Shown: positions 1,465 to 29,754, counted from the first letter of the stretch. The stretch is 32,000 bases of DNA from Candidatus Electronema aureum (GCA_004284765.1 NQJD01000004.1:30001-62000), one strand, 5' to 3'. Program-made: numbers and translations. The notes: generated by a model not told the origin, from the sequence alone.

Positions 1465-1779
1465 TCAGCCTTTGCTTTTCATCTCTTTCATGATGATGAG
1501 TCCCACTTTGAATTTAGGTTCCTCTTCTTTTTTGACGATGCTGTAAAACTCGCAGGTATGGCAGTCGCTACAAAATTTCTCAATGTAAGAACCTTGTGCA
1601 TTCGCACCCTTGCAGAGGGTTCCTGCAATAACCCAGCAGCAGCGACCTCCATTCTTTCCCTCATGAATGCCATCTGCCCGCTGCTCACCTGCCGCTGGGC
1701 AAACTCCGAACTCGGCGGCCTTTGGTCCACCTATCTCCCGCCCGCATTGTTTGACTTCCCAGCAATTCTTCTTGTCCAT
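1465..1779 (-). CDS. two-CW domain small cysteine-rich protein (putative metal/redox-binding)
   Basis: The 104-aa protein has nine Cys and two Cys-Trp signatures: NCWEVKQCG near the N-terminus and GGRCCWVIAGTLC centrally, followed by CSDCHTCEFY. This matches my memory of the NCBI 'two-CW domain' family. It is a stand-alone gene with an AT-rich promoter region at 1780-1900. Confidence 0.7.
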   Translation of the reverse strand: MDKKNCWEVKQCGREIGGPKAAEFGVCPAAGEQRADGIHEGKNGGRCCWVIAGTLCKGANAQGSYIEKFCSDCHTCEFYSIVKKEEEPKFKVGLIIMKEMKSKG

Positions 1780-1899: not shown

Positions 1900-1928
1900 T
1901 AAAAAATAAGGGCGAAAAATCGCCCTTA
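1900..1928 (-). terminator. Rho-independent terminator closing the chemosensory operon
   Basis: On the minus strand: stem AAGGGCG, loop ATTTTT, stem CGCCCTT (plus coordinates 1908-1927), followed by ATTTTTT. It lies 15 nt after the stop of the binding-protein gene. Confidence 0.7.
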
Positions 1929-1942
1929 CCCGTACACCATCA

Positions 1943-3130
1943 TTATTTTACTGGCTTAACTAACTTATCGACATAGACAAACGTAGCTTCGTCGCCTGTT
2001 TTCTCTATCTTGGTCAAATAAACCGCATCCATACCCCGGCGGTCGTCTGGGCCGAAAGAAACTGGAACACCGCCCGCATCGTAATGCGACAAAGATTCGA
2101 GCGAAGTTTTGATCGCCTCAGAAGTGACCTCGCCTTTAACATTCTTGACCGCCTGATGAAGAACGTTTGCTGCGATGTACGCCTCTAAGCTGATAAACTC
2201 ATATTTTTCCGCGCCCATATCCTCTTGATACTGCTTGACGATAGGCAGTGAAGCATCCCAAGGATCAGGAACAACTTGGCTGATATAGACGTTATCGCTT
2301 TCATTCAGCCGTTCTGCCAAGCCTCTTGAGCCAACAAAGGAAATGTTGAGCATCGGCACCTTGAAGCCCATCTTGTGCCACTGGTTGATGGCCAAAGCAC
2401 AAGACCTTGCCGTGCCAACTAAAATAACCGCCTCAGCCGCGTTACCCCTGATCTGTCGCACGCCGCCGCCCACAGAAACAGTGTTGCGTTTGTAGTGCGG
2501 CACGCTGTTCCAAAAAGTAGTCCAGTCCTCTGTCGCGGCATTGTCAGCAGGAATGGCTGGCACCTCTGGTACAATTTTGATGCCCCCCAATTTTTTTTCT
2601 GCTGCCACCGCGCCTTTGATACCGGTTAAACCGAAATCGTCGCGCTGGACAAAAATACTGACCCGCTTGATGCCCAAATCCTCTTTCAGGTGCCGCATCA
2701 TGTTTTCAATCTCGGCTCCGTAGCTGGCTCGTAGGGCAAAAGAGGAGGGATTTGCCACCGGATCGCTGAGAAACTCAGCACCAGTACTTGCACCAAAGAA
2801 AAGGGTCTTGCTCTCGTTCGCCAAAGGAACGGCAACTTTGGAAGTTGGGGTACCAAGATAACCGAACAACACCTGCGCACCGTCTTTGATGAACTCTTCA
2901 GTATTAGCCAGACAACGATCAGGCTCGTAGCCGTCGTCCTTGCTGGTCAGCACGATATCTTCAGCGGCCCGTTTATCAAAATAGGCTTTAGCACCTTTCT
3001 GGATTTCAGCACCGAGAAAAGCGGTCGGGCCGGTCAAAGCGGAAGACTGCCCCACTTTGACCGCCGCAACACCATGATCCGGCAAAAGCAGGCAGCAGGT
3101 TGAGAAAAGAATCCACAGCTTGAGTCTCAT
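1943..3130 (-). CDS. Orphan periplasmic substrate-binding protein, LivK / type-1 PBP (Peripla_BP_6-like)
   Basis: The family-typical N-terminus VKVGQSSALTGPTAFLGAEIQKGAKAYFDK and the overall length fit branched-chain amino acid/amide-type binding proteins. The ORF-track start at 3160 is a GTG. The ATG at 3130 has AAGGGA 6 nt upstream and gives the signal peptide MRLKLWILFSTCCLLLPDHGVAA. No ABC permease or ATPase gene is adjacent. Confidence 0.8.
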   Translation of the reverse strand: MRLKLWILFSTCCLLLPDHGVAAVKVGQSSALTGPTAFLGAEIQKGAKAYFDKRAAEDIVLTSKDDGYEPDRCLANTEEFIKDGAQVLFGYLGTPTSKVAVPLANESKTLFFGASTGAEFLSDPVANPSSFALRASYGAEIENMMRHLKEDLGIKRVSIFVQRDDFGLTGIKGAVAAEKKLGGIKIVPEVPAIPADNAATEDWTTFWNSVPHYKRNTVSVGGGVRQIRGNAAEAVILVGTARSCALAINQWHKMGFKVPMLNISFVGSRGLAERLNESDNVYISQVVPDPWDASLPIVKQYQEDMGAEKYEFISLEAYIAANVLHQAVKNVKGEVTSEAIKTSLESLSHYDAGGVPVSFGPDDRRGMDAVYLTKIEKTGDEATFVYVDKLVKPVK

Positions 3131-3166
3131 GTTTGTTCCCTTGTCAGTTGATCTTGTCACGGCTGA

Positions 3167-6100
3167 TTAGCGGCTTTCTTTTTCGAGCTTGAAGACGGCA
3201 ACGGCTTGGAGCATGTCGTCGCCCATTGCGGCCATCTCGCGCATGGAGATGGAAGCACCCATCGTCTCCTGAGCAGTTTCCAAGCTGACGCGCCCAATGT
3301 CAGTCATCTTGCTCGCCAGCGCGGCGGTGGTGTCAGCCTGCTCCTTAGAGGCTGAGGCCACGCCCTCAATCAGCTCCGCCACTTCGTTCGAGCGGGTGGT
3401 GATTTCCTCCAGCTTGGCCAGCGCGTTCTGCGACAGCTTAGTACCCTGAACAACTTCTTGGATACTCGCATCCATACTCACGCCGGCCTCGGTGATCTCG
3501 CCGAGAATGTTACGGATCAGAGTTTCGATCTGGCGCGTGGAAACGGCGGCCCGTTCAGCCAGACGCTGGATTTCCTCGGCAACAACTGCAAAGCCGCGTC
3601 CTTCCTCGCCTGCTGCTGCCGCTTGAATCGAGGCGTTCAAGGCCAAAATCGAGGTACGGTCAGAAATTTCGTTAATGGTACGGGCGAAATCGCTGATTTC
3701 CTGCGAGCTTTCACCCAGCCGCTTAATCGCGCGGGCGGTATTCTGGACGTTGCTACGGATAGCTTCCATAGAATGGCTGGTTTCACGTACCGCTGTCGCA
3801 CCGTCTTCAGCAACCTGGCTGGAAATCTTAGAAGTACCTGCTGATTGCCCGGCTTTTTCCGCAGCACCCCGGATTTCTGCGGTCAGCAAGCTAATCTTCT
3901 GTACTGCCTCGTTGAGCAGTTGCGATTGCGTGTTGTTCTGATCGGCCAGCTCTCCGGTCGAGGAGCTGAGGACGTTAGCGGTAGAGCCAACCTGTTCAGC
4001 AGAGTCCTTGATTCGGCGGAAAGCGCGGCCCAGCTCGTCGAGCATCATGTTGAGCGAGTCGGCCAAGGTACCGATAACGTCATCAGTAACGGTGGCTCGG
4101 ATGGTCAAGTCACCATCGGCTAACTGGGTGATTTCCTCCAGCAGTTGAATGATCGAGTTGTTCAGCTTGTCATGCTCTTCCTGCCGGGTCTGGATCAGGT
4201 TCTGGATCGTACCAGTCATGGTGTTGAAGTCACCAGCCAGACGACCCAGCTCATCCTTACTGGTTACTTTCGCCTGCATGCTGTAATCACCTTTTTCAAC
4301 CTTGCTCATGACCTGCACAATTTCCTTAACCTGCCGAGTCACGCCACCAGCAACCAGCAAACTGACCACCGCAATCAACGCTGCGGCTGAGAGAACAGTC
4401 ACGCCGATGATCTTCAGCAAGTTAGTTACTGGCTGATGCACGGCATCTTCACTCACCTCACTGATAATCGCCCATGTTAGGTCTTTATATTTAAACTGCG
4501 CCCAAGAGGACAACACGCTTTCGCCCGCACCGTTGACGATAATCTTGGTATTGTCTTTGCCAGACAACGCTTCTGTCACTGCCTCAGTTGCCACTTTGGC
4601 CTTCGGATTCAGCAGCGTTTTTTCTACACCGTATTTTTTGGCATTTGAGGATTCAGAACGCCAAAGATGATCTGAGCCGATCAGATAGGTGTCGGCAATT
4701 GCCGTCTCCGCACCGGTCTGATGCTTGGATCCCTCTTCAAAGCGGCTGCGAATGTCCATAACCGCGTTGATTTGGTCAATCGGTATCTGCAAGGCAGCGA
4801 ACATGATGATTTCTTGCTTGTTGCTCAGAATCGGCGCAACTAAGAAAGCAGCGGGTTTGTCGCCTGCGGGTGCATAAAAGTCATAGTCGCTGATGGCAAT
4901 TTCTTTACTCGTGACCGCTTTGGCGACTGTTCCACCGAAGTTGGTGTCCTTATACGGGCCACTCAGCATGTTGGTCAAAAAATCTGCCTGTTTTTTGGCA
5001 GAGTAAAAAATGTAGCCGTCCGGGTTAATCAGGTAGAGGTCAGGAAAGCCGTAATGGGCGGCCAGCTCGCTTAAATGGTCGGTTTCTTTATCCGCAACCT
5101 TCCGCTTGGGGGCTACGGCATCAGCCTGATCCAGATCAACGATCAGTACCCACGTGGTACCGTAGATTTCCACCGAGGTGTAGGAAGAAAGCACGTAGTC
5201 ACCGCGATAGTTGTTGGTTGTCTCCTCGCCGCTCTCGCCGGACAGGGCATAAACCACGCTCTCAGTATCGACGACGAAGGCTGGGTTGGCCAAGGTCGGC
5301 TCGGCAAAATAAGCAGAGTTGGAACGGAACATGCCGTCCACACCAACGAGGTACGATTCGCCTTTGTCGCCAAGTCCTGGAGGATTCTTGGTGATATCAT
5401 CCAAGGCATTGCCTTTTAGCCCGAACAAGAGTACGCCTTCCAACTTGCCCTCAATAGTAAAGGGGGTAGAAAAATAGGCCACCATCTTATCGGTATGTTC
5501 TGCATGAAAAGAAGAAGGAGAGTAATCAATAAAGGCAGTTTCTTGTATTCCTTTCTGCAAGGCATTCCATTCTGCGGTTTTCTCTTTAACCACCTCGCCT
5601 CGCGTCATATCCTTATCAGTGGAATACAGCACTTTACCATCAGGACTGAGTAGAACGAGGGCGGAAAAGTCTCGTTGTTCGAGCCAATTCGTCAGATACT
5701 CAGCAAAAGCACTATCCATCTCTGTCGAGGCATCTTTAATGAAGCCCGTGAACATCTTCTTCTGCTCAGGGTTATTCGCAAAAGCCTGTGTGTTCTGATA
5801 GCGCATCTGAAAGTAGTCGATGATTTGCTTTTTCTGCAAATCCCTGACTGCTGCTAATTTGATGTGCGCCTCATTCTGGAGAAGCTGCATAGTCTCTGAA
5901 ATATTTTTCAGAGTCTTTTCCTGCTCCGTGAAATACTGATGCAGGGCCTGATGCTGGAACGCCAAGGTGGTTTCCAAGTTTTCAAAGGACTGCTGCTGCA
6001 AGGCCGAGGCCGAATAGCGCCAGCTGAACAGCGCGATCACCGCCATCGGCACCAAAGAAATCAGGAGGAGCCAAAATAGCAGCTTGCCCTTGATACTCCG

Positions 6101-6187
6101 CCCTAACGTGAACAGGCCCTTCAGGTTAGCGGCCTTCAGGCGGCTAAGTATCTGCTCCGCCGCTTTTCTTTTCAACACGTTCGCCAT
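3167..6187 (-). CDS. Methyl-accepting chemotaxis protein with large tandem Cache-like periplasmic region, HAMP and MCP signalling domains
   Basis: GAGGAG lies 4-5 nt before ATG 6187. TM1 is [21 protein letters not shown] and TM2 is [28 protein letters not shown] segment: [21 protein letters not shown]. Signalling hairpin: [41 protein letters not shown]. Confidence 0.9.
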
Positions 6188-6226
6188 TTTTTCTCCTCTA
6201 TAACAAGAAAATTACCTGAAACACCC

Positions 6227-6751
6227 TTAAACCGCAGGCTCCGGCCATGCCGCAGGCGGGCAGAGCGTAGGCAGCAGATTTGGCACCATCATCATCCCGT
6301 CTTCGTGGGCAAATAATCCTTTGAATAGGGCAGGATCAAGCCCGCTTGCCTCTATCGCTGCGGCAGCACACTGTTTAGGCAACTCGCGGGCAGCAATCCG
6401 ATCGGAAACCTTGAGAATACAGCGTAACATCCGCCGAGAGCTGTTTTCCTTTTCGTCCTCAGCTGGAACAACAAGCCGTATCACCATATATAAACTGCGA
6501 TCAGCGGAGAAACTCATGCCATGTAGTTTGGCAATATCCACCACCGGCAGCACCTGCCGCCGCCAAGCGCACAGCCCCAGCAGCCAATCGGGTGCAAAAG
6601 GCAGGGGGCGTACCTCTACATCTTGGAGTATTTCCTCCACCTGCCGTGTGGCGAAGAGCAGCACTGGCTCTTGATCCAACACCTTTGCTCCGGTCAATCG
6701 CACAGCGACCGTTTTTAGGGCCGCTCGTTTTATTCCTTGTTCATCCGGCAT
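6227..6751 (-). CDS. Divergent CheW-like coupling protein
   Basis: CheW-like core: LLFATRQVEEILQDVEVRPLPFAPDWLLGLCAWRRQVLPVVDIAKLHG. The ORF track starts at 6802. The internal ATG at 6751 (MPDEQG...) overlaps the upstream stop by only 11 nt (ATGCCGGATGA) and is the more economical start. Confidence 0.7.
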   Translation of the reverse strand: MPDEQGIKRAALKTVAVRLTGAKVLDQEPVLLFATRQVEEILQDVEVRPLPFAPDWLLGLCAWRRQVLPVVDIAKLHGMSFSADRSLYMVIRLVVPAEDEKENSSRRMLRCILKVSDRIAARELPKQCAAAAIEASGLDPALFKGLFAHEDGMMMVPNLLPTLCPPAAWPEPAV

Positions 6752-7847
6752 GTTGTTCACCCGGCATTCTGCGGCCTGCGCTTTCTTGGCAACGCAAGAC
6801 AATCTGATCGATGAGATACTGAATGATGTTTTCGCTCAGACCCTTTTGCCGCACCATCTTGGCCAAATCGGGGGGCAGCTGCTCCATACTGAGATGCGGC
6901 TCCTCGCCTCCGGTCTTGCTTTGCTTGAAGCAAGCGATGGTCCACGTCATCACTTTTTTAAAAGTTTCTTCGTCAATAGAAGCGGCGGTTTCTTTTTTCT
7001 CTTGTTCCGAGATAGATTCTGATGATTCTTCTGTAGAGGTATCTTGTATATCATCGGCAACCGGCTCATCAAGCTCTTCTGATTCGAGTTCTGTTTCAGT
7101 AAATATTGATTCTTCGCTTTCAGGTAAATCAGAAGAATCATCAGAAGGGCAGACACAGAAATTTTCATCTACATTTTGATCAAGCAGGGCGGCGGATTCT
7201 TCAGCGTTTCCAGGTGAATTGCCGAAAGACTCCTCGTCCATCTCTTCTTTGGAAGATGCTTCTGTAGGCGCAACACCCTGTGGCTGTTCTATATCAATTA
7301 CAGATTCAACCAATTCTTCTTCAACCAGTTCCGTTTCAGCAAATATTGATACTTCGCTTTCAGGCAAATCAGAAGGGCAGTCAAAGAGGTCCGCCTCGCT
7401 ATTCTGTTCCGCGATGAGCGTTTCCTCCGCAGCAGCCAGCCTTCCGATACCATTGCCCAGCTCATCGGCAACCGGGATGATTTGAGCCGGATTGAGCAGC
7501 AGTACCGCCGAATCACCCCAAATTGTCACTTGTGGGCAAAGCCGAGCCGCCAAGCGCGGGCAAACAGGCGGCAGCGGGCCGGGCGGATTAATGACTTCCA
7601 CCTCGTCAGCGATAAGCTGGTCGGCTACGAGAAAAAAGGATTCGTCCTTTCCCCGCATCTCCAAACAGATCGCATCCGACTGCGGCTCTCCACCCGGTTG
7701 CTGGGCGAACAGCGCACTGAGCTGCACGATTTTGCTGTCTTGTTTGAGCAGCGAGGCTGCCTCGGCCCACGACATCCGGCCAATGATGTCGTGTTCAGCG
7801 ATACCCAGTAGAAAGCGGCCCGCTTGTGCTATACAGATTTTCTTCAT
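6741..7847 (-). CDS. CheW-like domain protein with acidic internal repeats and an unknown C-terminal helical domain
   Basis: The N-terminal ~130 aa have a CheW-like pattern (FLLGIAEHDIIGRM..., FFLVADQLIADEVEV). The central ~170 aa are extremely acidic, with the duplicated block DLPESE(V/E)SIF(A/T)ETEL. The C-terminal ~80 aa (KKVMTWTIACFKQ...LSENIIQYLIDQIVLRCQES) are not recognised. Confidence 0.65.
   Translation of the reverse strand: MKKICIAQAGRFLLGIAEHDIIGRMSWAEAASLLKQDSKIVQLSALFAQQPGGEPQSDAICLEMRGKDESFFLVADQLIADEVEVINPPGPLPPVCPRLAARLCPQVTIWGDSAVLLLNPAQIIPVADELGNGIGRLAAAEETLIAEQNSEADLFDCPSDLPESEVSIFAETELVEEELVESVIDIEQPQGVAPTEASSKEEMDEESFGNSPGNAEESAALLDQNVDENFCVCPSDDSSDLPESEESIFTETELESEELDEPVADDIQDTSTEESSESISEQEKKETAASIDEETFKKVMTWTIACFKQSKTGGEEPHLSMEQLPPDLAKMVRQKGLSENIIQYLIDQIVLRCQESAGRRMPGEQHAG
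7087..7389 (-). repeat. In-frame direct repeat inside the acidic CheW-like gene (two ~60-70-nt copies offset by 240 nt)
   Basis: AGTTCTGTTTCAGTAAATATTGATTCTTCGCTTTCAGGTAAATCAGAAG (from 7087) matches AGTTCCGTTTCAGCAAATATTGATACTTCGCTTTCAGGCAAATCAGAAG (from 7327). The first copy carries a 12-nt insertion. Confidence 0.8.
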
Positions 7848-7869
7848 AATTTCGAGCTACGCCGTCGCT

Positions 7870-10800
7870 TCATTCGTTCATCTCCACCGCAATACGCCCG
7901 GAGATCATACTGCGAATGAGTTCAACAGCCTCATCTTCTTTGAAGGGTTTCGTCATGAAACCGCGTGCACCGAGCTGGGATGCTTTTTCACGGTATTTGT
8001 CCGCGCTGCGAGAAGTAAGCATGACCACTGGAATATCTTGGAATTCTGGCTGACTTTGCAAGGCTTGTAGCACTTCAAAACCATTCATACGTGGCATTTC
8101 CACATCCAGCAGCACGAGGTCAGGTTTTTCTTCGCGGATACGCTCCAAGGCTTCAATACCGTTGCGAGCAATAGTCGGCTGCCAGCCATGCTGAAGGAGG
8201 AAGTTAGACACGACCTTACGCACGCTGATTGAGTCATCGACCACCAGCACTTGGATTGGCCTTTCCTCGGTTTGCGGTTGTACTTCTGTAACAAACTCTG
8301 TTTCAGCCGACGGCGCAGTCAATTGTGCCCATTTTTTCAATAAATCATCGATCTGAAGAATGGGAATCAAACTACCGTCACCCATAATGGTCACGCCCGC
8401 GATGCAGGCTACGTTGCTCAGATGACTGCCCAAATCTTTGAAAACGATATCGCGCTGGCCGATGATTTGTTCGCAGAGCAAAGCAGCCCGCCTGCTGCCA
8501 ACGTGGACGGCAAGTACAGCCAGCTCGCTTTCCGGCAGGGCCTCGCCTGAAACACCAACCTGAAAGCCGGGGATAGCCGCTGGATTGAGCAACGGCAACT
8601 TTTTGCCGTCAACCTCGCATTCGTTAGCAACTATGTCTTCGGGTCGCACTCTGGCTGCGCTACTGATGTCGTGCATCGGCACGGCGTAGGTTTGGCCAGC
8701 CAAGCGCACAAGTACCGCATGAAGCTGGGCCACAGCTACGGGTAGCCGGATGAGCAGCTCCAGCCCCTTACCTCTGGGCGAGAAAATTTCAATTGAACCG
8801 TTGAGCAGCTCGACCGAATCGCGCACTACGTCCATGCCCACGCCGCGACCCGCAATGCTGCTGATCGACCCGGCGCTGGAGAAGCCATGCCGAAAAATCA
8901 GCGTGGCTAACTTCTCATCGCTCATACTATCGATGCGCTCGTGAGGATAAAGCGTCATACCTTTAATGCGGATAGCTTCGTAATTCAAGCCCTTACCGTC
9001 GTCCTTGATCCGCAGAGAAAACTGACCGCCCCGTCGTTCGGCTTTAATCCGCACGGTCAGCTGTCGCTCCGAGCTACCACCGTGAGCTACTGAGTTGCGG
9101 AGGATGTGCATGAGCGCGTCGGCCATCGTGTCCCAGACGCGAGTGTCCATCATGATCGACTCGCCGTCAATAATCAGCTGGGCTGGATGGCCGGTGCTGC
9201 GTTCGGCCTCGCGCAGAGTGCGTTGCATCCGGGCGGAGAGCACAGAAAGCGGTGTCATCCGCAAGCCGATCATTTTATTCTGAATGTCCTTCAGAACCCG
9301 CGCCTGCCGCTCGACCGTTCTTTCCCAAGCGATGTTTTCCAACGCGCTCTGGGCCATGATTGAATCAAGGTCGCTGACCGCCTCGCTCAGAGAGCGAATA
9401 AGGATGTTCAGCTCAGAATAGCGATCCATCTCCAGCGGATCGAAGTCCTCAGTGAGGCTACCACTGTCGGTATCACTCATGCCGCGCAGATAGGGGATAG
9501 TTGCCAGCTCGTAGCCTGTTTCTAAGCTATGGTTGATGCTTTTCAGCCGTTGGAGAATCATACCCAGCTCATTGAGGGTACCAGACATGGCTGACATGGA
9601 TGCCTCAAAGCTGCTCAGGTTGATGACCATGTCGCCACTCAGACCAACCACTTGGTCAATCCGGCTGATATCGACGCGCAGCGTGTTGATTCTGCGCACT
9701 CCGGTATGTTGTTCTTGAACTGGAGGCGGTGGCGGTGGTGGCGCGGCAGGAGTAGGCTCTGTTACTGAAGCAATAGGTTCTGCTGAAACAGCAGGCAACG
9801 GCGCAGGTGCGGGTTCTTCGGCATCGATAACGGTAACAGGCTCGGCAGCAGCAACCTGCGGCTGTGTTTTTTCGCTTGCGATGATTTTACGAAATCGCTC
9901 TACTACCGCTTCCTTTTTTTCAGTCACCGGCACCGCAGGATTTTCAGTGATACGCACCAGCAGATCGGCACCTTCCTGCATGGCCGCTACATCTTCTGAG
10001 TGCAAAACCGGCGATTCATCATGGAGCCAGTCAAGGAAGTCCTCAAACTCATGTCCCCACGCCGCCACCGGTTCAATGCCGATTACCGCTGCCGCGCCTT
10101 TCAGCGTATGCACCGAACGGCGGAGTGAATGCAAATTCTCCCGCAGCGGCTCTGAGAGCGCGGTCTCATCGTCCACGCCAGCGGCCAGCTCTTTCAGCTG
10201 TTGGTCGATGTTTTCTAAATGCTCCGCTGCTTCCTCGTTGAAGCATTGCATCAACTCAGGATCAATGGCCTGAATTGTATCCTCAGCTACAGGTTCCGTC
10301 ACCGAAGCTGAGGCAAACAGGCTATCATTATTGTCTTCAGCAGCGGGAAAAAACTCCTCATCACCTGCGGATACGTCATCGAGCTGCGGCTCAACGGCAA
10401 AAAGTTGCTCCTCAGCCGAATCAGCGGTGGGGAACAGTTCAAATTGCTCCGTTGCCCCAGTTTCGCACGGTTCTTCTTCCGCAAAAAAAACATCCACCGT
10501 TGCTGCGGAAGGCAGGTCAGCCGTTTCCGGCTGCGCAGCAAAGGCGGACGCAACTACAGGCGTGGCCATGATTTCCCGGAACCGAGTCACAGCGACTTGC
10601 TTATCTTGCTCCAGCGAAATGGTTGGTTGGTCGGCTATCCTCGCCAAAATATCCGCGCCTTCCTGCATGGCGGCCACGTCTGATGGGTGCAGCACCGGCG
10701 ATTCATCATGGAGCCAGTCAAGGAAGTCCTCGAATTCATGCCCCCAAGCGGCTACAGGCTTGATGCCAATCACCGCCGCCGCGCCTTTCAAAGTATGCAC

Positions 10801-12567
10801 GGAGCGGCGGAGTGAATGGAGATTTTCCCGCAGCGGTTCAGACAGCCGAGTTTCGCCGTCCACCCCAGCGGCCAGTTCCTTTAGCTGCTGGTCGATGTTC
10901 TCTAAATGCTCTGCCGTCTCTTCGCTGAAGCATTCCAGTAGCTCAGGATCAATGGCCTCATCTTCCTCTTCAGCCGACTCAGGAGCGGCGGCAAACAAGT
11001 CTTTGGCATCAGGCAGCTCATCAAAGAGCGAAGCCTCAGTCTCGTCGTTTGGCTCTTCAGCAAAAAAGTCGGCTTCACGTTCTTCAGCAGCACATACGTC
11101 CGCGACCGGCAGTTGCTCAGTCTGCGCCGCCATAATTTCCCGAAAGCGGAGGGCAGGAGACTGAACTTCCTGCTTTTCTGTTGTGGCTGGTGAAAAAACA
11201 ACGGAAATTGCATCTCCGTCGAAATTGGGAAAAAGACCTGTGCGGTTGCTTTCTTCAGAAGTGGAATCCGGCGGCGAGAACAACTCGTCAAACAGGTTTG
11301 TAGCTGAACTGTTGGCTTGTTCTTCAGCAAAAAGCTCGTCAGCAGGAAGGGAAATTTTCGGTTCTGCGCTGTCAGCGGGCGGAGCTGCCGCCTCTTCTTC
11401 AACAGTTTGAAACAAACCGCTGTCTTCCGCAGAAGCATCATCGGAGAACAACTCGTCAAAGAGGACTGCTGACGAGCTGACGTCCGTTTTTTCGGCAAAA
11501 AAATCTTCAACCTCAGAGGCAAAAGCCTGATCAACGGTTTCAGGCGGCGCAGCCTCCGGCTCAACTTCCGCCGCTGGCTCAAGTTCAGTCCCGCTTTCCT
11601 CCCTGATGACGCGGAATTGCTCTGCTGCTGCCCGCTGTTCCTCTGCAAAAACGCAGGTTGCGTCTTCAGCTAAAACTGCCAGCACGTCACGCCCGTCATG
11701 AACAGCGGCCAAGGCCTGCGGGTGCAAGACAGGAGCTTCATCATGCAGCCAATCGAGGAAATCCTCAAACTCGCGGCCCCACGCTGCCACTGGCTCAATG
11801 CCAATCACTGCCGCCGCGCCTTTCAAGGTATGCACAGAGCGACGTAACGAATGAAGACTCGCGCGCAGATCGTCGGAGAGCGGGGTTTTGTCGATAACAG
11901 AGGCAGTCAGCTGCTTGAGTTGCTGATCAATGTTATCCAGATGCTCGGTTGCCTCCTCGTTGAAGCAGGCCATCAGCTCAGGATCAATGGCGTATGCTAC
12001 TGGAACAGACGTTGTTCCCTCATGCTCTTCGAGATTTTCGTTAAGCAGGAAAACCTCTTCCACTTCCCCCTCGTTGACAGAGAGTAGTTGCTCAAGAATC
12101 CCGGCGATGGAATCTTCATCAGCACCGACTGGCGGCTCTTTTTCAGCAGGCGCATCGTCGCGTTCCGGCGGAAGATCACGGTGTTTTGCCTGAAAAGCGG
12201 CCAACGTTTCCTGATGCAACAGGGTACTACCGCCCTGTTTTTCCACGCTCCGTAAGGTGCAGAAAGCATCAATCCGCTGTATCGTATCGCTGAAAAGTGA
12301 AATCAGCTCATCGTCCATAATCAGCGCAGATTCAAGCACCTTGTCCATGACCTGTTCCAGCAGTCCACCGGTCTGGCTCAAATCATCAAAACCCACCATC
12401 GCGGCGGCACCCTTGATGGTATGAACCATACGATGTAGCTCGGCAGCGGCCTCGCTGTTGTCCCGGTCTTTTCTCAGTGTTTGCAGACAGCCGCGCATTA
12501 GGGGCAAATACCCTTCCACCTCGCTCAGGAATTCAGCTGCGATTTCATTGGCCGACGTATCGTCCAT
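7870..12567 (-). CDS. ChpA-like hybrid CheA histidine kinase: 4 x Hpt, dimerisation, HATPase, CheW-like and C-terminal receiver domains
   Basis: AAGGA lies 8 nt before ATG 12567. Hpt1 is LHRMVHTIKGAAAMVG. Three further Hpt domains carry LHSLRRSVHTLKGAAAVIGI. N-box HILRNSVAHGG, G1 IKDDGKGL, G2 GRGVGMDVV. The CheW-like P5 region is followed by a receiver (VLVVDDSISVRK...LLDVEMPRMNGF...TKPF). Confidence 0.95.
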   Translation of the reverse strand: MDDTSANEIAAEFLSEVEGYLPLMRGCLQTLRKDRDNSEAAAELHRMVHTIKGAAAMVGFDDLSQTGGLLEQVMDKVLESALIMDDELISLFSDTIQRIDAFCTLRSVEKQGGSTLLHQETLAAFQAKHRDLPPERDDAPAEKEPPVGADEDSIAGILEQLLSVNEGEVEEVFLLNENLEEHEGTTSVPVAYAIDPELMACFNEEATEHLDNIDQQLKQLTASVIDKTPLSDDLRASLHSLRRSVHTLKGAAAVIGIEPVAAWGREFEDFLDWLHDEAPVLHPQALAAVHDGRDVLAVLAEDATCVFAEEQRAAAEQFRVIREESGTELEPAAEVEPEAAPPETVDQAFASEVEDFFAEKTDVSSSAVLFDELFSDDASAEDSGLFQTVEEEAAAPPADSAEPKISLPADELFAEEQANSSATNLFDELFSPPDSTSEESNRTGLFPNFDGDAISVVFSPATTEKQEVQSPALRFREIMAAQTEQLPVADVCAAEEREADFFAEEPNDETEASLFDELPDAKDLFAAAPESAEEEDEAIDPELLECFSEETAEHLENIDQQLKELAAGVDGETRLSEPLRENLHSLRRSVHTLKGAAAVIGIKPVAAWGHEFEDFLDWLHDESPVLHPSDVAAMQEGADILARIADQPTISLEQDKQVAVTRFREIMATPVVASAFAAQPETADLPSAATVDVFFAEEEPCETGATEQFELFPTADSAEEQLFAVEPQLDDVSAGDEEFFPAAEDNNDSLFASASVTEPVAEDTIQAIDPELMQCFNEEAAEHLENIDQQLKELAAGVDDETALSEPLRENLHSLRRSVHTLKGAAAVIGIEPVAAWGHEFEDFLDWLHDESPVLHSEDVAAMQEGADLLVRITENPAVPVTEKKEAVVERFRKIIASEKTQPQVAAAEPVTVIDAEEPAPAPLPAVSAEPIASVTEPTPAAPPPPPPPVQEQHTGVRRINTLRVDISRIDQVVGLSGDMVINLSSFEASMSAMSGTLNELGMILQRLKSINHSLETGYELATIPYLRGMSDTDSGSLTEDFDPLEMDRYSELNILIRSLSEAVSDLDSIMAQSALENIAWERTVERQARVLKDIQNKMIGLRMTPLSVLSARMQRTLREAERSTGHPAQLIIDGESIMMDTRVWDTMADALMHILRNSVAHGGSSERQLTVRIKAERRGGQFSLRIKDDGKGLNYEAIRIKGMTLYPHERIDSMSDEKLATLIFRHGFSSAGSISSIAGRGVGMDVVRDSVELLNGSIEIFSPRGKGLELLIRLPVAVAQLHAVLVRLAGQTYAVPMHDISSAARVRPEDIVANECEVDGKKLPLLNPAAIPGFQVGVSGEALPESELAVLAVHVGSRRAALLCEQIIGQRDIVFKDLGSHLSNVACIAGVTIMGDGSLIPILQIDDLLKKWAQLTAPSAETEFVTEVQPQTEERPIQVLVVDDSISVRKVVSNFLLQHGWQPTIARNGIEALERIREEKPDLVLLDVEMPRMNGFEVLQALQSQPEFQDIPVVMLTSRSADKYREKASQLGARGFMTKPFKEDEAVELIRSMISGRIAVEMNE
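9966..10270 (-). repeat. Hpt module copy C (4th Hpt) of a three-copy in-frame tandem paralogue set
   Basis: It aligns by eye with 10653-10957 at a constant offset of 687 nt (229 codons). It encodes AIDPELMQCFNEEAAEHLENIDQQLKELAAGV...HTLKGAAAVIGIEPVAAWGHEFEDFLDWLHDESPVLH. Confidence 0.85.
10653..10957 (-). repeat. Hpt module copy B (3rd Hpt)
   Basis: Same unit as copy C. The protein sequence is almost identical to copy C across the Hpt core, while many third codon positions differ. Confidence 0.85.
11688..11992 (-). repeat. Hpt module copy A (2nd Hpt)
   Basis: Offset 1035 nt (345 codons) from copy B. It encodes AIDPELMACFNEEATEHLDNIDQQLKQL...HTLKGAAAVIGIEPVAAWGREFEDFLDWLHDEAPVLH. It is more diverged at nucleotide level than B is from C. 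Confidence 0.8.
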
Positions 12568-12599
12568 CTGCTTGTTCCTTCATGGGTTGAGGGCTGGCT

Positions 12600-13184
12600 T
12601 CATTGCAGCCTGATCGAAGAGAGCAGCTTGCTGCCGTCAAAAAGCTCCAGCTCGTGTTCGCCGTTTTCTGCTAAAAACAAAGCCGAGCCGCTGATAAAAT
12701 CAACTGGAACCGCTGCCGCGTCGAGGTGTTTCATCCCCTCTTTACGGTAAAGCAGACGAGTGCCGGTAATTTTATCGACTATGGCTGCTGTCTTCATGCC
12801 TTTTTCATGCAGAATGATGACCGTCCTGCCTTTTTTGGGAATTTTCTCGGTAATTTTGAACAAAACCGCAAGATTGGTGACAGAGACAATCTCACCCCGG
12901 AGATTCGTCACGCCTTCAGACCAACTTGGTAAAAAAGGCAAAGGCCGCACTGTTTCTAATTCACCGACCTCAATTACTAAAGACAGAGGCACAGCGAGAT
13001 GCTGCCCGGCCAGCGTGAAGCAAATGTGCCGACCGATTTCAGTCAGCGTTTGCGCTGAACCGGAATCATCTGTTAGCTGCTGCTCGCGGCGCAGTTCCTC
13101 AGCGATCTCCTGATCAATGCCAGACAGTAGCGCGGTTAAGACCACATCCGCGCTGCTGGTCTCTTGTTGGGCGGTCATGCCCAC
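12600..13184 (-). CDS. cheW: CheW coupling protein (PilI-like position)
   Basis: CheW pattern: HICFTLAGQHLAVPLSLVIEVGELETVRPLPFLPSWSEGVTNLRGEIVSVTNLAVLF. The start is either GTG 13184 or ATG 13178, 8-14 nt after the upstream stop. Confidence 0.85.
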   Translation of the reverse strand: MGMTAQQETSSADVVLTALLSGIDQEIAEELRREQQLTDDSGSAQTLTEIGRHICFTLAGQHLAVPLSLVIEVGELETVRPLPFLPSWSEGVTNLRGEIVSVTNLAVLFKITEKIPKKGRTVIILHEKGMKTAAIVDKITGTRLLYRKEGMKHLDAAAVPVDFISGSALFLAENGEHELELFDGSKLLSSIRLQ

Positions 13185-13192
13185 GGTCCGGC

Positions 13193-13558
13193 TCAGGCGA
13201 GTAGGCCGGTGACTGCTTTCAGCAGTTCAGCCGGGTCAAAAGGCTTGGTCAAATAAACCTCTGCACCCTGCTTCTTGCCCCAGAACTCATCGGATTTCTG
13301 ATTTTTACTGGTGAGCAGGATGATCGGGATGTTCTGAAGATCGGGCGTAGATTTGATCGTCCGGCACGCCTGAAAGCCGTTCATTTTTGGCATGACCACG
13401 TCTAAAATGATCAAATCAGGCTTTTCAGCAGCCGCCTTAGCCACGCCTTCTTCACCATCTATTGCGGTCACAACCGCATATTCTGGGCCGCTGAACACAT
13501 CAATGATCAGCTTCAATTCAGTGGGGCTGTCATCAACTATCAGCAATTTTTTAGCCAT
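13193..13558 (-). CDS. Single-domain response regulator, PilH/PixH-type CheY
   Basis: AGGA lies 6 nt before ATG 13558. Receiver motifs are LLIVDDSPTE and LIILDVVMPKMNGF. The tail LLTSKNQKSDEFWGKKQGAEVYLTKPF matches the SK-Q-x-D-x-FWG-x-KQGA-x-Y-x-TKPF signature I associate with PilH/PixH. Confidence 0.9.
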   Translation of the reverse strand: MAKKLLIVDDSPTELKLIIDVFSGPEYAVVTAIDGEEGVAKAAAEKPDLIILDVVMPKMNGFQACRTIKSTPDLQNIPIILLTSKNQKSDEFWGKKQGAEVYLTKPFDPAELLKAVTGLLA

Positions 13559-13621
13559 GTTCGTTCCTTTCTTTTCAACGTTAGAGGTTCAAAGTTTCAC
13601 GCACGAGATTTTTTCAACTTC

Positions 13622-15466
13622 TCAACTGACCGACGTTTCCGTTGATTTTGCCCCTTCAGGCGCATTTTTATCAAGGATACTGTTGACCACATTGATCAGC
13701 TCCGCTGGTTTGAAGGGTTTGGTCAGATAAGCACTGGCAGCGGAAAGATGGCCCTTCACCTTGTCGAGTATCCGATTTTTACTGGTCAGCATGACCACAG
13801 GAATATCCTTGGTCTCACCATTTTTCTTGAGAATCGACAGGAGTTTGTAGCCATCAATCTTGGGCAGCATGATGTCCAACAGTACCATGTCAGGCCGATC
13901 ATCGTTGAGCTTGCTCAGAGCCTCTACCCCGTCTACCGCCTCAATCACCCGGAAACCGCCGCTCTGAAGGGTCATCTTGATTACCTTGCGAGTGGTAGGG
14001 CTGTCTTCCACGACTAATACCGTTTTTTTATCGGTCTGATTGTCAATTACCTGTCTTTCTTTCTTGAACTGCTGCGCCGACGAAGTCGGCGTACTCCGTT
14101 CCTCTATTTTCTGGTTAGAGGCGATATAATCGACAATCTGTCCTACCTGCTCTGATACCTTTTGATAGCGGCTATCTACCTGAATGATCGGCATCAGCAG
14201 ATCAAAATAGGTCAGAGCCTTATCAAAATCGTTCAAATTGAGATACGCCGCGCCGGCATAGAAAAGAATCTTTGGATTCACTTCAGCAGCTAACACTTTT
14301 TCAAAACGTCCGGCAGCTTGGAGAATTAACCTCCGATCAACTGCATAAGGATCAATCTTGGCTAATGCCGAGGACTCAGTCAGCAAACTGGCCTTACAGC
14401 AAATGCAGGCCGGAGCTTGGTGTTCCAGCGGTGCGTAGCAAAAGGGACAGCGGATGATCTTGGCTTCGGCAGCTGCGCTGTTGAGTAGGCGAGCTTTCTC
14501 GACATCCTCTAAAATATCGGCATGTTCTGGTTCAAGCCGGTAGGCTTCTGCCAGCGCAGTCTTAATTTTTTTTGGCTCAGTCACCGCCCGCGACAGCCAA
14601 AGCCAGCCCAAAGCATTCTTGCGGTTTTCTTTAACAAAAGCCATCAGTGGCTTCTGCGCTTGGACGAATTCTAACCGCTCGCAGAGTCGGATACCCTCGT
14701 CGAGCAGTTTTTGCTGCTGTGGTTCCTCGCCGCCATCCTCTTCCTCACCGCACTGATGATCCTTCTGAATCATGGCATTGATGAGCAGGTTTTGATTGCT
14801 TTTATGCACCCGCCGGATGATATTTTTATCTAAAAGGCAACTGCTAACCTGCACGCCCTCCATACTTAAAAGTTTGAGCGCAGCTTCCTCGCCAACCAGC
14901 TTGCCGCAGATTGCATCGTAGATCGTACCTTGGACAAGGAACAGACTGCCCCGGAACTCCTTGCAGTTCTGCTCGATGCACTGATTCATGTCGTGGTGAT
15001 CGCTGCTTTTATGGACATCAAGGCGGCAGGTGGTGCCTTCTGTTTCCATCAGCTGGACAATACCCACCACCGAAAATTCGCCCAAATCGCTCTTTTTTTG
15101 CTGTGTTTTGAGGCCACGAAGAATCGCATCCGCCAGCTCCTGCGACATCACCGGCTTTTTGAACATCTGAAAAACCTTGCCAGACAGTCGTTCTTGGAGT
15201 TCAGGTAGCTCGTAGGAGGTGATAACGATGCAGGGAATCTCAGGATGTTTTTCGTAAATATGCGCGAGCAGCTGAAAGCCATCGCCACCAGGCATGACAA
15301 TGTCAGTAACGATTAAGGCAATGTCGTCATCACGTTCCAAGGCAGCCGCTGCATTTTTGATGTCAAAGGCATGAACGAGTTCAAAAATGCTGCTGTACTT
15401 ACTTAACGTGGAATTGATCAGCTCGTGAATGACATGATCATCATCGACCAACAGTACTTTCTTCAT
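13622..15466 (-). CDS. Dual-receiver regulator: REC - PATAN/DUF4388 - TPR-like/zinc-ribbon - PilG-like REC
   Basis: AAGGA abuts ATG 15472 and lies 6 nt before ATG 15466, so MKKVLLVDDD is the likely start. REC1: VLLVDDDHV...IVTDIVMPGGDGF. DUF4388-like: GEFSVVGIVQLMETEGTTCRLDV...GSLFLVQGTIYDAICGKLVGEEAALKLL. Zinc ribbon: CPFCYAPLEHQAPACICC. TPR-like: FYAGAAYLNLNDFDKALTYF. REC2: VLVVEDSPTT...LLDIMLPKIDGY...MLTSKNRILDKVKGHLSAASAYLTKPF. Confidence 0.85.
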   Translation of the reverse strand: MKKVLLVDDDHVIHELINSTLSKYSSIFELVHAFDIKNAAAALERDDDIALIVTDIVMPGGDGFQLLAHIYEKHPEIPCIVITSYELPELQERLSGKVFQMFKKPVMSQELADAILRGLKTQQKKSDLGEFSVVGIVQLMETEGTTCRLDVHKSSDHHDMNQCIEQNCKEFRGSLFLVQGTIYDAICGKLVGEEAALKLLSMEGVQVSSCLLDKNIIRRVHKSNQNLLINAMIQKDHQCGEEEDGGEEPQQQKLLDEGIRLCERLEFVQAQKPLMAFVKENRKNALGWLWLSRAVTEPKKIKTALAEAYRLEPEHADILEDVEKARLLNSAAAEAKIIRCPFCYAPLEHQAPACICCKASLLTESSALAKIDPYAVDRRLILQAAGRFEKVLAAEVNPKILFYAGAAYLNLNDFDKALTYFDLLMPIIQVDSRYQKVSEQVGQIVDYIASNQKIEERSTPTSSAQQFKKERQVIDNQTDKKTVLVVEDSPTTRKVIKMTLQSGGFRVIEAVDGVEALSKLNDDRPDMVLLDIMLPKIDGYKLLSILKKNGETKDIPVVMLTSKNRILDKVKGHLSAASAYLTKPFKPAELINVVNSILDKNAPEGAKSTETSVS

Positions 15467-15760
15467 GTGCATTCCTTACGCGTTGCCGCATCAGTCCGCA
15501 GATGCCGCTGTTCAAATCGGTTCAAAAAGTAAGCAAGAGAAAGTCCGCTCCGGAGGATTTTTTCAGTATATGCACAGGACAAAGGCAGGCGCATTTCCAA
15601 GCACAACAAGGAAATAGTTTGCGGGTAAAAAATTGCAGGGCAGACGCACATTTTTTCCTTCTGCTGCATAAAAGCGGAACCGGAATACAGGCCAGCGCAT
15701 TGTTTATGCAGAATAGCCCCGCTCTCCCCGTAGGAAGACCTCCGATCAGGAAATTTTTCC

Positions 15761-15790
15761 ATCTTAAATAGGTTGGGGTAGTTTTGTCAA
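15761..15790 (-). promoter_or_regulatory. Candidate sigma70-type promoter for the chemosensory operon
   Basis: On the minus strand: perfect -35 TTGACA (15790-15785), an 18-nt spacer, then TAAGAT (15766-15761). This would give a ~280-nt leader. Only sequence resemblance supports it. Confidence 0.2.
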
Positions 15791-15914
15791 AACAAATTCA
15801 TTCGGCGAACGATGGAATCTGCCGTTCTTCCCAAGAAATAGCAGGCAATCTACTCGAAAATACTGCTTTACTGCGAAATGATCGGCCCAATGCTTCTTTT
15901 ACCGGGTGACAGCA

Positions 15915-15951
15915 GGAAAAAACAATTCTTTGAGAATCATTCTCAAAGAAT
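15915..15951 (-). terminator. Rho-independent terminator after trpS, insulating it from the chemosensory operon
   Basis: Perfect 13-bp inverted repeat ATTCTTTGAGAAT (15925-15937) / ATTCTCAAAGAAT (15939-15951). On the minus strand it is followed by TTGTTTTTTCC. Confidence 0.75.
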
Positions 15952-15961
15952 GAGACGAATT

Positions 15962-16930
15962 TCAATACTTCAATCCTGCCCGATCACGAACCAAGTCCAA
16001 AGTGACAGTAGCCTTAGCCCGCGCCTTGTTCGTCCCCTGCCGCAGCACCTGCCGCAGATAATCCTGATTGACCATCAGCTCTTTCTTCCGCTCTCTGGCT
16101 TCAGCATAATAATCACGGATCAGCTCGAATAAATCCTGCTTCAAATAACCGTAAGCCGCTCCGCCGTTGAGATACAGACTCCGCACCTCTGCCATCTTTT
16201 CTGGGGAAGCAAAGAGTTTAAGCAAGGCGTAGAGATTACATTTGTCAGGATCTTTCGGCTCTTCCACCGGTGTGCAGTCGGTCTGCACTGCCATAACTCG
16301 CTTGCGCAGCTCTTTATCCTCTAAGAAAAGAGGGATGGTGTTACCGTAGGATTTGGACATCTTTTGGCCATCGAGACCAGGGATAATGGCCATGCTTTCG
16401 CTGATCGCCGCCTCCGGCAGGACAAAGGTCTCGCCAAAGGTGCTGTTAAAACTGATCGCAATGTCGCGGGCTACTTCTATATGCTGCTTCTGATCCTTGC
16501 CCACCGGCACAATTTCAGCCTGATACAGCAAAATATCCGCTGCCATCAACACTGGATAGGCGAACAGACCGTGGCTGGCGGCGATGCCCTTGGCGGTCTT
16601 GTCCTTGTACGAATGGCAGCGCTCCAGCAGGCCCATCGACGTGACAGTAGACAGCACCCAAGCCAGCTCGCAGACCTCTGGCACCTCTGACTGTACCCAG
16701 AATATACACTTAGTTGGATCAAGACCGATGGCGAGGAAATCCGCTGCCGCCTCTAAGGTGCCTGCGGCGAGCTTCTGTCGGTCATGAACGCTGGTGAGGG
16801 CATGAAGATCGACGATGAAGGCGTAGAGTTCCGCGTTCTCCATGCTGGAGATCATCGGTTTCATCATGCCGAAATAGTTGCCAATATGAAGTTTACCGGA
16901 GGGCTGAATGCCGGAAAGTATGCGTTTCAT
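15962..16930 (-). CDS. trpS: Tryptophan--tRNA ligase
   Basis: The 322-aa protein has the class I signatures GIQPSGKLHIGNY (HIGH region) and KMSKS, and an overall TrpRS-like length and layout. Confidence 0.95.
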   Translation of the reverse strand: MKRILSGIQPSGKLHIGNYFGMMKPMISSMENAELYAFIVDLHALTSVHDRQKLAAGTLEAAADFLAIGLDPTKCIFWVQSEVPEVCELAWVLSTVTSMGLLERCHSYKDKTAKGIAASHGLFAYPVLMAADILLYQAEIVPVGKDQKQHIEVARDIAISFNSTFGETFVLPEAAISESMAIIPGLDGQKMSKSYGNTIPLFLEDKELRKRVMAVQTDCTPVEEPKDPDKCNLYALLKLFASPEKMAEVRSLYLNGGAAYGYLKQDLFELIRDYYAEARERKKELMVNQDYLRQVLRQGTNKARAKATVTLDLVRDRAGLKY

Positions 16931-16970
16931 GATTTCTGCTGGTTGGATTGACGGTTAAGCAATAGGCAGG

Positions 16971-16999
16971 AATATACCAGCAGATGCGCCCCGCCGCAA
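16971..16999 (-). promoter_or_regulatory. Candidate extended -10 promoter for trpS
   Basis: On the minus strand: TTGCGG (16999-16994), a 17-nt spacer ending TGG, then TATATT (16976-16971), i.e. TGnTATATT. It sits ~40 nt upstream of ATG 16930. Confidence 0.3.
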
Positions 17000-17054
17000 G
17001 CAGCTGGGCATTATCTCTTCGACGTTTCAGTCAAAAATAATGCGTGTGAACAAG

Positions 17055-24093: not shown

Positions 24094-24105
24094 AACGAAA
24101 ATCTC

Positions 24106-24465: not shown

Positions 24466-24471
24466 GATTTG

Positions 24472-27446: not shown

Positions 27447-27459
27447 GAGAATGTACTTT

Positions 27460-28752: not shown

Positions 28753-28761
28753 ATTTTTACT

Positions 28762-29562: not shown

Positions 29563-29601
29563 TGCATCGTGACTTGCGGCAATTTCATTTCATTTTTTTG
29601 T

Positions 29602-29754
29602 TTAAAACAACGTGTAAATGAAAGGAGCGATCGCAGAGCCTTCAGAAAGAACGATCAGCGCACCCAGCATCACGATAACCAAGATGATCGGAGCCAGCCA
29701 GAATTTTTTTCGCTCTCGCAGGAATCCCCAAAGGTCTTTCAAAAGTTCAAGCAT
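29602..29754 (-). CDS. DUF5989 / SxtK-like 50-aa membrane mini-protein (absent from the supplied ORF track)
   Basis: Hand translation of the minus strand gives MLELLKDLWGFLRERKKFWLAPIILVIVMLGALIVLSEGSAIAPFIYTLF, then TAA. GGAGA lies 7 nt before ATG 29754, 14 nt after the SxtJ-like stop. The sequence closely matches my memory of the DUF5989 family consensus. Confidence 0.75.
   Translation of the reverse strand: MLELLKDLWGFLRERKKFWLAPIILVIVMLGALIVLSEGSAIAPFIYTLF

Follow-up and report, generated by a model that had tools for sequence, protein, structure and literature searches.

Chemosensory systems are grouped into classes (Wuichet & Zhulin 2010). Those of the type IV pilus (Tfp) class typically contain two CheY-like regulators, and the cyanobacterial members do without CheR/CheB. 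In cyanobacterial Tfp-class loci a regulator with a PATAN domain is usually encoded by the first gene, and the PATAN domain of Synechocystis binds PilB1 and PilC and suffices for output. CheA kinases with multiple histidine phosphotransfer (Hpt) domains belong to the Tfp class or to the alternative cellular functions (ACF) class in ~93% of cases. Here we describe a cluster of eight genes in a 32-kb stretch of DNA (hereafter the window) from Candidatus (Ca.) Electronema aureum, a freshwater cable bacterium. With a probability of roughly 0.6, we read the cluster as a type-IV-pilus-class (Pil-Chp / cyanobacterial Pix-Tax-like) chemosensory pathway.

The gene set beside described pilus-class systems

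The eight chemosensory open reading frames (ORFs) lie on the minus strand, from 13622-15472 down to 1943-3160, and encode proteins of 616, 121, 194, 1565, 368, 191, 1006 and 405 amino acids (aa), where an earlier sequence-only reading of this DNA had placed eight packed genes. Public gene calls put the likely starts of three of them (13178, 6751 and 3130) slightly downstream of the longest ORF. Intergenic gaps measure 6–63 nt, with an 11-nt overlap between genes 5 and 6 if gene 6 starts at ATG 6751; the close packing described earlier stands, with its lower bound moved from 8 to 6 nt. No CheR or CheB domain was detected in any ORF of the 32-kb window, in agreement with the earlier statement that the unit holds no methyltransferase or methylesterase, and neither the window nor any cable-bacterium locus gave a CheB methylesterase match. 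The domain order proposed at that time was reproduced by Pfam for most genes and by a CheW fold for gene 5, while its TPR assignment proved weak. NCBIfam contributed no specific family for these products.

Gene 1 (13622-15472) encodes a 616-aa regulator that reads REC, PATAN, CxxC...CxxC zinc-ribbon motif, TPR-like region, REC. Pfam found two Response_reg stretches (E 2.5e-43) and DUF4388/PATAN (PF14332, 32 bits against a cut-off of 25), with sub-threshold TPR matches. All cable orthologues retain, in each of the two REC domains, the acidic pocket, phospho-acceptor Asp, Thr/Ser and Lys, and the zinc-ribbon motif, CPFC-x10/11-CxxC between PATAN and the TPR-like region, is present in 20/20 aligned sequences. 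The C-terminal REC ends with a TSKN...YLTKPF tail. Gene 2 (13193-13558) encodes a single-domain CheY-like receiver of 121 aa (Pfam REC, E 4e-27) that both NCBI and JGI name 'twitching motility two-component system response regulator PilH'. A PDB sequence search with the receivers of genes 1 and 2 returned generic receivers only (PleD, PhoB and CheY) and therefore does not discriminate the PilG/PilH type. Gene 3 (12600-13184, annotated start 13178) encodes a canonical CheW of 192–194 aa, 192 in the public record (Pfam CheW, E 3e-19), and its alignment retains the GvxNLRGE receptor-loop signature.

The hybrid kinase is the 1565-aa product of gene 4 (7870-12567), a ChpA-like CheA in which Pfam recognises four Hpt domains, H-kinase_dim, HATPase_c, CheW and a C-terminal REC (residues 1440-1551). 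The Hpt histidine motifs, HT[IL]KGAA, stand at residues 49, 246, 591 and 820; the P3-P4-P5 core is present and P2 gave no match. Between the Hpt domains run acidic, Phe-rich linkers with repeated DELF/DFFA-like motifs. In JGI, fragments that share at least 90% identity with the kinase carry the name 'chemosensory pili system protein ChpA', as do most of the other homologues with a name. Relatives of the kinase core at 37–52% identity come from Desulfobacterales, Desulfocapsa and other Thermodesulfobacteriota assemblies. The core is ~33% identical to proteobacterial proteins that JGI names ChpA and 28% identical to one cyanobacterial protein; the best proteobacterial-type kinase matches (~33–36% identity) sit in PilG/H/I/J-ChpA-like gene orders.

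Gene 7 (3167-6187) encodes a 1006-aa transmembrane chemoreceptor with the order TM1, dCache_1, TM2, HAMP, HAMP, 40-heptad (40H) domain (Pfam HAMP in two stretches, and MCPsignal). Hydrophobic segments at ~32-58 and 586-620 enclose a periplasmic region of ~530 aa that matches dCache_1 in two stretches (62.6 bits). Relative to the 36H receptor Tsr, the signalling domain carries two symmetric 14-residue insertions, and it aligns almost without gaps to Pseudomonas putida PcaY (314 versus 315 residues), which we take to be a 40H receptor. The insertions and the near-gapless alignment indicate a 40H class for the receptor; this heptad count agrees with the non-flagellar class that had been proposed for it. 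The signalling domain does not retain the Glu/Gln pairs found at the methylation sites of Tsr. Among the 19 receptor orthologues scanned, 14 have no match to the methylation consensus [ASTG]2-x2-[EQ]2-x2-[ASTG]2; the sole match in the others (the window and four Electrothrix-type orthologues) is one site aligned to a non-methylated stretch of Tsr. The receptor orthologues have no C-terminal pentapeptide. Receptors of HAMP-HAMP-40H type would be expected, from array-height data, to form unusually tall arrays, taller than those of single-HAMP 40H receptors.

Two CheY-like regulators are thus encoded with the system, gene 1 through its C-terminal REC and gene 2 with its PilH annotation. The PATAN-REC regulator comes first and the window contains no methylation enzymes, as in the cyanobacterial PatA-type Tfp subtype; the dedicated CheR (PilK) and CheB (ChpB) of the proteobacterial Pil-Chp subtype were not found in the window. 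The multi-Hpt kinase with a C-terminal receiver and no P2 has the architecture of Tfp kinases, one that ACF kinases also have. Judged by these proxies (the PATAN first gene, the PilH and ChpA names, the multi-Hpt kinase with REC and the 40H receptor), assignment to the Tfp (pilus-control) class is supported, and the same features uphold the sequence-only reading in preferring Tfp to the flagellar type.

The cyanobacterial Tfp systems (Tax1 PixGHIJL and Tax3 PilGHIJL of Synechocystis, and Hmp of Nostoc) likewise begin with PATAN-REC followed by CheY and CheW, use a hybrid CheA-REC and have no CheR/CheB, and PATAN there is the output to the pilus motor. The missing CheR/CheB, once taken as a departure from both the Pseudomonas and the cyanobacterial model, is already on record as normal for cyanobacterial Tfp systems, and the position of the kinase before the receptor, also put forward as a distinction, is a mere permutation of gene order. 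The differences lie elsewhere. Compared with the cyanobacterial systems, the regulator of Ca. Electronema aureum has an extra N-terminal REC, the zinc-ribbon motif and the TPR-like region; its receptor is a periplasmic dCache protein encoded after the kinase, whereas theirs carry photoreceptor modules; and the locus adds two extra CheW-fold genes, a binding protein and a kinase with four Hpt domains.

With the Pseudomonas aeruginosa Pil-Chp system (PilGHIJK-ChpABC), the shared features are two PilG/H-type receivers (antagonistic there), a PilI-like CheW, a multi-Hpt ChpA with a C-terminal REC, a CheW (ChpC) after the kinase and a 40H receptor. The 5' order of PilG-like, PilH-like and PilI-like genes, together with a CheW after the kinase, mirrors Pseudomonas pilGHI and chpC. 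CheW-like genes after the kinase had been counted as a further departure, but a CheW in that place has its parallel in ChpC. Unlike Pil-Chp, the locus has no PilK (CheR) or ChpB (CheB) in the window and no receptor methylation consensus; its PilG equivalent carries PATAN, CheA identity is ~33%, and the PilJ-N domain is found on separate secreted proteins and not on the receptor.

Between the kinase and receptor genes lie genes 5 and 6. Gene 5 (6741-7847) had no Pfam or NCBIfam match, and Pfam CheW was absent even at E≤10. An AlphaFold (AF2) model built from 17 homologues, searched with Foldseek, divides its product into a CheW/P5-fold domain (residues 1-135; pLDDT >90), an acidic disordered linker (~136-285; 150 aa, 33% Asp+Glu) and a helical C-terminal domain (~290-360; pLDDT ~85–90). 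The top 18 Foldseek matches in the PDB are all CheW or CheA-P5 (E 6e-6 to 3e-2), with TM scores of 0.46–0.67 against isolated CheW chains; the C-terminal domain had no significant PDB fold match. In an alignment with both CheWs and the kinase P5, genes 3 and 6 keep the GvxNLRGE loop and gene 5 lacks it. Because the modelled fold is CheW/P5 while the Pfam CheW match and the loop are missing, the gene 5 product is a CheW-fold derivative and not a canonical CheW, which bears out its earlier description as acidic and CheW-like. Gene 6 (6227-6802) encodes a second CheW of 174 aa from ATG 6751 (partial Pfam CheW match, E 2e-9), called 'CheW-like domain-containing protein' in the public record, with orthologues at the equivalent position in all loci.

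Myxococcus xanthus FrzB is reportedly an extra, divergent CheW-fold protein in which the interaction surface of canonical CheW is incomplete. Gene 5, which also encodes an extra CheW-fold protein, in a cluster of the gliding/pilus-related kind, and lacks the GvxNLRGE loop, resembles FrzB by description; it differs in its 150-aa acidic disordered linker and conserved helical C-terminal domain. Short acidic, Phe-rich motifs (DELF, DFFA, EEFFP and SIFxETEL) are common to the kinase linkers and the gene 5 linker (residues 136-285). Speculatively, these acidic aromatic motifs may be docking sites, possibly for the TPR-like region of gene 1.

Gene 8 (1943-3160) encodes a secreted solute-binding protein of the Peripla_BP_6 (LivK/HAAT) type, 395 aa from ATG 3130 (Pfam, E 5e-42). 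Its N-terminus, MRLKLWILFSTCCLLLPDHGVAA, reads as a signal peptide, and among solved structures the closest is 4kv7, which is probably a Leu/Ile/Val-binding protein. No transporter genes lie near gene 8 in the window, and the earlier remark that the binding protein lacks a transporter partner at this locus holds. Escherichia coli uses binding-protein-dependent chemoreceptors: MBP with Tar, RBP and GBP with Trg, and DppA with Tap. The pairing of a secreted binding protein and a membrane-spanning receptor whose sensor faces the periplasm resembles the MBP-Tar type. In contrast to that type, the binding protein here is encoded in the operon, belongs to the LivK/HAAT family and has no adjacent transporter; the sensor is dCache and not a four-helix bundle, and the interaction between the two is putative.

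Conservation, relatives and boundaries of the operon

When genomes, one for each species, were scanned with the gene 5 family, 15 loci emerged, all from Electronema, Electrothrix or unnamed Desulfobulbaceae metagenome-assembled genomes. A tblastn search with the eight products recovered the full set in unchanged order from 15/15 loci (35–100% protein identity); upstream of the cluster, only the closest relatives still have trpS and rsmB as neighbours. Given this conserved gene order, the cluster is no chance run of ORFs.

Six contexts outside the cable bacteria were read (L018 and L020 to L024). All begin with REC-PATAN-REC or PATAN-TPR-REC, followed by CheY, CheW and CheA-REC, and the first-gene homologues of L018-L024 have PatA_N matches. 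The variation follows the kinase gene. L018 continues with a CheW, a dCache receptor and the orthologous binding protein. L020 and L023 have a gene 5 homologue with a short linker, then a CheW, a dCache receptor and two secreted proteins. Two CheW genes, an M16 peptidase, a CheY, a dCache receptor and a different binding protein (Peripla_BP_5/6) follow in L021; L022 has mobile genes, CheB, two CheW genes, an M16 peptidase, a CheY and a receptor. In L024 a CheW and a receptor with a hemerythrin domain complete the series. Five non-cable Desulfobacterota assemblies thus retain the order with small changes (0–1 extra CheW-like gene, binding protein present or absent), so the architecture, as judged from gene content and order, is not unique to cable bacteria but extends to related lineages of sulfate reducers, and the suggestion of an unrecognised system gives way. 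Hpt domains number 3–5 in the cable orthologues and two in 5/6 non-cable relatives. An expansion from two to about four Hpt domains and the long acidic, Phe-rich linkers are the changes of the cable lineage.

The gene 5 family is small, with 62 representatives among 1.84 billion proteins in an exhaustive profile search. Most full-length matches span both the N- and C-terminal domains, and that search did not find the C-terminal domain outside the family. The cable profile matches proteins of L020 and L023 (E ~1e-26 to 1e-29), covering both domains in L020 and the N-terminal region in L023. In L021 and L022 the position of gene 5 is taken by a Pfam-positive CheW that shares a C[CF]P motif. Owing to these homologues and to the motif-sharing CheW in its place, gene 5 is a CheW paralogue that diverged inside this Desulfobacterota lineage and gained its long acidic linker in cable bacteria. 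Two of its cysteines, C95 and C103 (CPxLAxxLCP), do not vary among 17 cable sequences. C95 is replaced by Tyr in non-cable homologues, and a redox role for the pair was downgraded for this reason.

Two loci depart from the common arrangement in other ways. In Ca. Electronema halotolerans (L011), 4.3 kb are inserted between the kinase gene and gene 5 (5666-9732), encoding an AccI-type restriction endonuclease, an N6 DNA methylase, a small ORF and a DDE transposase. As a restriction-modification pair with a transposase, the insert was not counted as a component of the system; it indicates that the operon tolerates interruption at this junction. In L024, from a Desulfobacterales relative, the receptor with the C-terminal hemerythrin domain (15324-17003) is followed by a standalone hemerythrin (18889-19302), which hints that this cluster family can be wired to oxygen or iron sensing.

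An intrinsic terminator after trpS marks the upstream boundary of the unit (15915-15951, minus strand; 12-bp hairpin with a T-run), folding at −12.4 kcal/mol (z −2.0) over 15951-15925. After the binding-protein gene, a second hairpin with a T-run (1900-1928, minus strand; −18.9 kcal/mol, z −3.0) forms a probable, possibly leaky, terminator. Both of the bracketing terminators that had been predicted thus fold. Internal terminator-like sites are not enriched (17 observed versus 19.4 expected in shuffled sequence). The top promoter-like site is a sigma-70-like promoter, TTGACA-18-TAAGAT (15761-15790, minus strand; 10/12 matches), ~290 nt 5' of gene 1. In alignments its block, GTTTTGACAAAAC...CTATTTAAGATGG, is conserved in Electronema-type loci (the window, L004-L008 and L015) and partly kept in 3/5 aligned Electrothrix-type loci (L009, L014 and L017). 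Short gaps, the overlap, the promoter block, flanking terminators and an order kept while upstream genes change together establish that the eight genes are one conserved unit.

The ~290-nt leader (within 15473-15830, minus strand) contains several short conserved blocks, including GCATC-N8-GATGC just 5' of the ribosome-binding site. A riboswitch or leader RNA is unsupported: the whole window had no Rfam match at gathering thresholds, the 5' leader had none at E≤1, and leader folding showed no excess structure (z +0.95). A sigma-54-like GG-N10-GC element, spotted by eye in the leader, was set aside because it lies in a poorly conserved stretch of the leader alignment.

Genes conserved beyond the binding protein

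Directly 3' of the binding-protein gene lies a ninth gene (1465-1779, minus strand) with its own ribosome-binding site, encoding a 104-aa cysteine-rich two-CW domain protein (NCBIfam NF045718, 96 bits versus a cut-off of 35). It keeps this position in 13/15 related loci (67–100% identity; no match in L004 and L008). The protein is modelled by AF2 with a pLDDT of 91 and had no PDB fold match at E≤10; seven cysteines are invariant across 27 homologues. Homologues elsewhere are mostly standalone 100-aa proteins. A role as a general chemotaxis partner was dropped, as homologues were not beside che genes in the three contexts read.

On the plus strand, convergent with the operon, lie two genes for secreted proteins, each with a signal peptide and each found in 11/15 related loci. 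A strong bidirectional terminator (1407-1449, both strands; 19-bp stem, −38.8 kcal/mol, z −6.75) is common to them and the two-CW gene. The first (598-1389) encodes a 263-aa helical protein, 47–53% identical to the product of the gene directly after the receptor gene in the non-cable loci L020, L023 and L024. Positions 1-601 hold the 3' part of the second, which begins ~286 nt before the window and encodes a 295-aa PilJ-N-like protein, 31–34% identical to proteins of the same three loci. The L020 homologue is a clear PilJ N-terminal sensor domain protein (PF13675 PilJ, 74.8 bits); the cable protein scores 22.8 bits, below the cut-off of 26.6. In L020, L023 and L024 the homologues of the secreted pair follow the receptor gene on the same strand. 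By synteny, the conserved block therefore appears larger than eight genes, with the two-CW gene and two secreted PilJ-N-like proteins as additional members, and the binding protein is not its last gene, contrary to what had been assumed.

Elsewhere in the window, a plus-strand gene (18691-19965) joins a cytochrome bd subunit I-like N-terminal region to a C-terminal c-type cytochrome domain (Cytochrome_CBB3, E 1.4e-8), an unusual fusion in an organism noted for reducing oxygen without classical oxidases. The minus-strand run at 22123-32000 encodes an aldolase-SDR fusion, a glycosyltransferase, a Wzt/Wzm-type ABC exporter, an SxtJ-like protein, a GDSL lipase and a carbamoyltransferase, and may be relevant to sheath or slime production.

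Proposed pathway, competing readings and meaning

Every component type of the operon is known, the methylation-free, PATAN-led design is known from cyanobacteria, and the cluster is widespread among Desulfobacterota assemblies; this is not a new kind of system. The Desulfobacterota arrangement, the family of gene 5, the binding protein encoded in the operon, the linked PilJ-N-like secreted proteins and the cable expansions appear to be undescribed in the searchable literature, and the cable-bacterium literature searched does not describe the operon. A supplement search found no MiST classes for Electronema or Electrothrix CheAs.

Cable bacteria have type IVa pili (T4aP) genes, glide and show oxygen-directed behaviour. 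Cryo-electron tomography (cryo-ET) of the same strain (GS) revealed polar membrane-bound chemosensory arrays that reach 35.8 nm into the cytoplasm and lie next to pilus-like filaments at the junctions between cells. The most plausible role of the operon is control of cable-bacterium gliding. From the observed gene content, domains, folds and conservation, we infer all interactions, the ligand and the pilus output as follows. The dCache region of the 40H receptor would detect a periplasmic small molecule directly, through the secreted LivK-type binding protein, or both. The signal would then pass through the two HAMP domains to arrays composed of the two CheWs, the CheW-fold accessory protein and P5 of the ChpA-like kinase, whose Hpt domains would deliver phosphate to the PATAN regulator, the PilH-like CheY and the kinase's own receiver. 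The phosphorylated PATAN regulator may act on the pilus motor (PilB/PilC), and the resulting pilus activity would set the direction or stops of filament gliding. The PilH-like CheY and the kinase receiver would serve as antagonist or phosphate sink, replacing methylation-based adaptation. The pilus link is supported by the association of a PilJ-N-domain protein with the cluster, in cable and non-cable lineages alike.

Several observations weigh against this pathway. Multi-Hpt kinases with REC and 40H receptors also occur in ACF systems, and 40H does not discriminate between Tfp and ACF. The PATAN match is modest at 32 bits and the TPR match is below threshold; no pilus gene lies in the 32-kb window; and the receptor shows no tie to oxygen, sulfide or redox. 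The hairpin after the binding-protein gene separates it from the conserved downstream genes, whose membership comes via synteny only. In a more distant relative, Desulfococcaceae bacterium HSG8 (L022), the cluster includes CheB (17101-18195), with an M16 peptidase and an extra CheY, indicating that the loss of methylation enzymes is not universal in the lineage.

Sharing its kinase type with Tfp systems, an ACF-like pathway could have exopolysaccharide (EPS)/slime secretion, second-messenger turnover or filament development, for example, as its output, with the PATAN-TPR regulator acting on another partner. Cable bacteria secrete EPS during gliding, a polysaccharide export/modification cluster occupies ~22–32 kb of the window, and HD-GYP and GGDEF genes adjoin related clusters in some loci. 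We nevertheless consider it unlikely: PATAN is, by experiment, an output that binds the pilus motor, annotation pipelines name PilH and ChpA, and the PilJ-N-domain neighbour is conserved. Moreover, the polysaccharide genes are at least 5 kb away, with housekeeping genes between, and show no synteny with the cluster in other genomes.

It is also conceivable, though quite improbable, that a chemosensory core of genes 1–7 travels with unrelated passengers, the binding protein serving an ABC transporter elsewhere and the two-CW protein and secreted pair having no part in signalling. The terminator-like hairpin, the separate ribosome-binding site of the two-CW gene and the place of its homologues away from che genes would suit such an arrangement, as would the lack of a binding protein after the receptor gene in L020, L023 and L024 (L022 is cut off within its receptor gene). 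On the other hand, the binding-protein gene starts 6–36 nt after the receptor gene and is kept in every cable locus that reaches that far and in L018 (61% identity); L021 has its different Peripla_BP_5/6 protein at the equivalent place; no transporter genes are adjacent; and the secreted pair follows the receptor gene in three non-cable loci.

That gene 5 and the two-CW protein couple the kinase to filament redox, making the system a redox or electrical-state sensor of the cable lineage with no periplasmic ligand, is very improbable: although the cysteine pair of gene 5 is invariant in the cable sequences and seven cysteines of the two-CW protein are so across its homologues, the linkage of the two-CW gene to the cluster is confined to cable bacteria, one relative's receptor bears a hemerythrin domain and cable bacteria react to lost oxygen contact, C95 is a Tyr outside the cable lineage, no cofactor-binding fold was recognised, and the sensor of the receptor is an ordinary periplasmic dCache, accompanied by a binding protein.

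Returning to the pilus-class pathway, it is a long shot that an ancestral Desulfobacterota version was rebuilt in cable bacteria so that it signals the filament's electrical or redox state, or coordinates reversals along the filament. The doubling of Hpt domains to about four, the acidic Phe-rich linkers, the cysteine pair of gene 5 and the recruited two-CW protein would be the changes serving this purpose. If true, the rebuilt pathway would be the missing sensor behind the oxygen and 'electro'-taxis of cable bacteria.

Cable bacteria must span oxygen at one end and sulfide at the other, which they achieve by gliding, stopping and reversing, and the searchable literature ties no sensor or control pathway to this positioning behaviour. 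The operon is present in every cable-bacterium genome recovered and fits the polar arrays seen by cryo-ET, and thereby offers concrete candidates for experiment: the receptor, the binding protein, the PATAN regulator and the CheW-fold accessory protein. More broadly, the cluster defines a Desulfobacterota branch of pilus-type chemosensory systems, apparently without methylation enzymes and with an unusual CheW derivative, and so widens the known design space of these systems.

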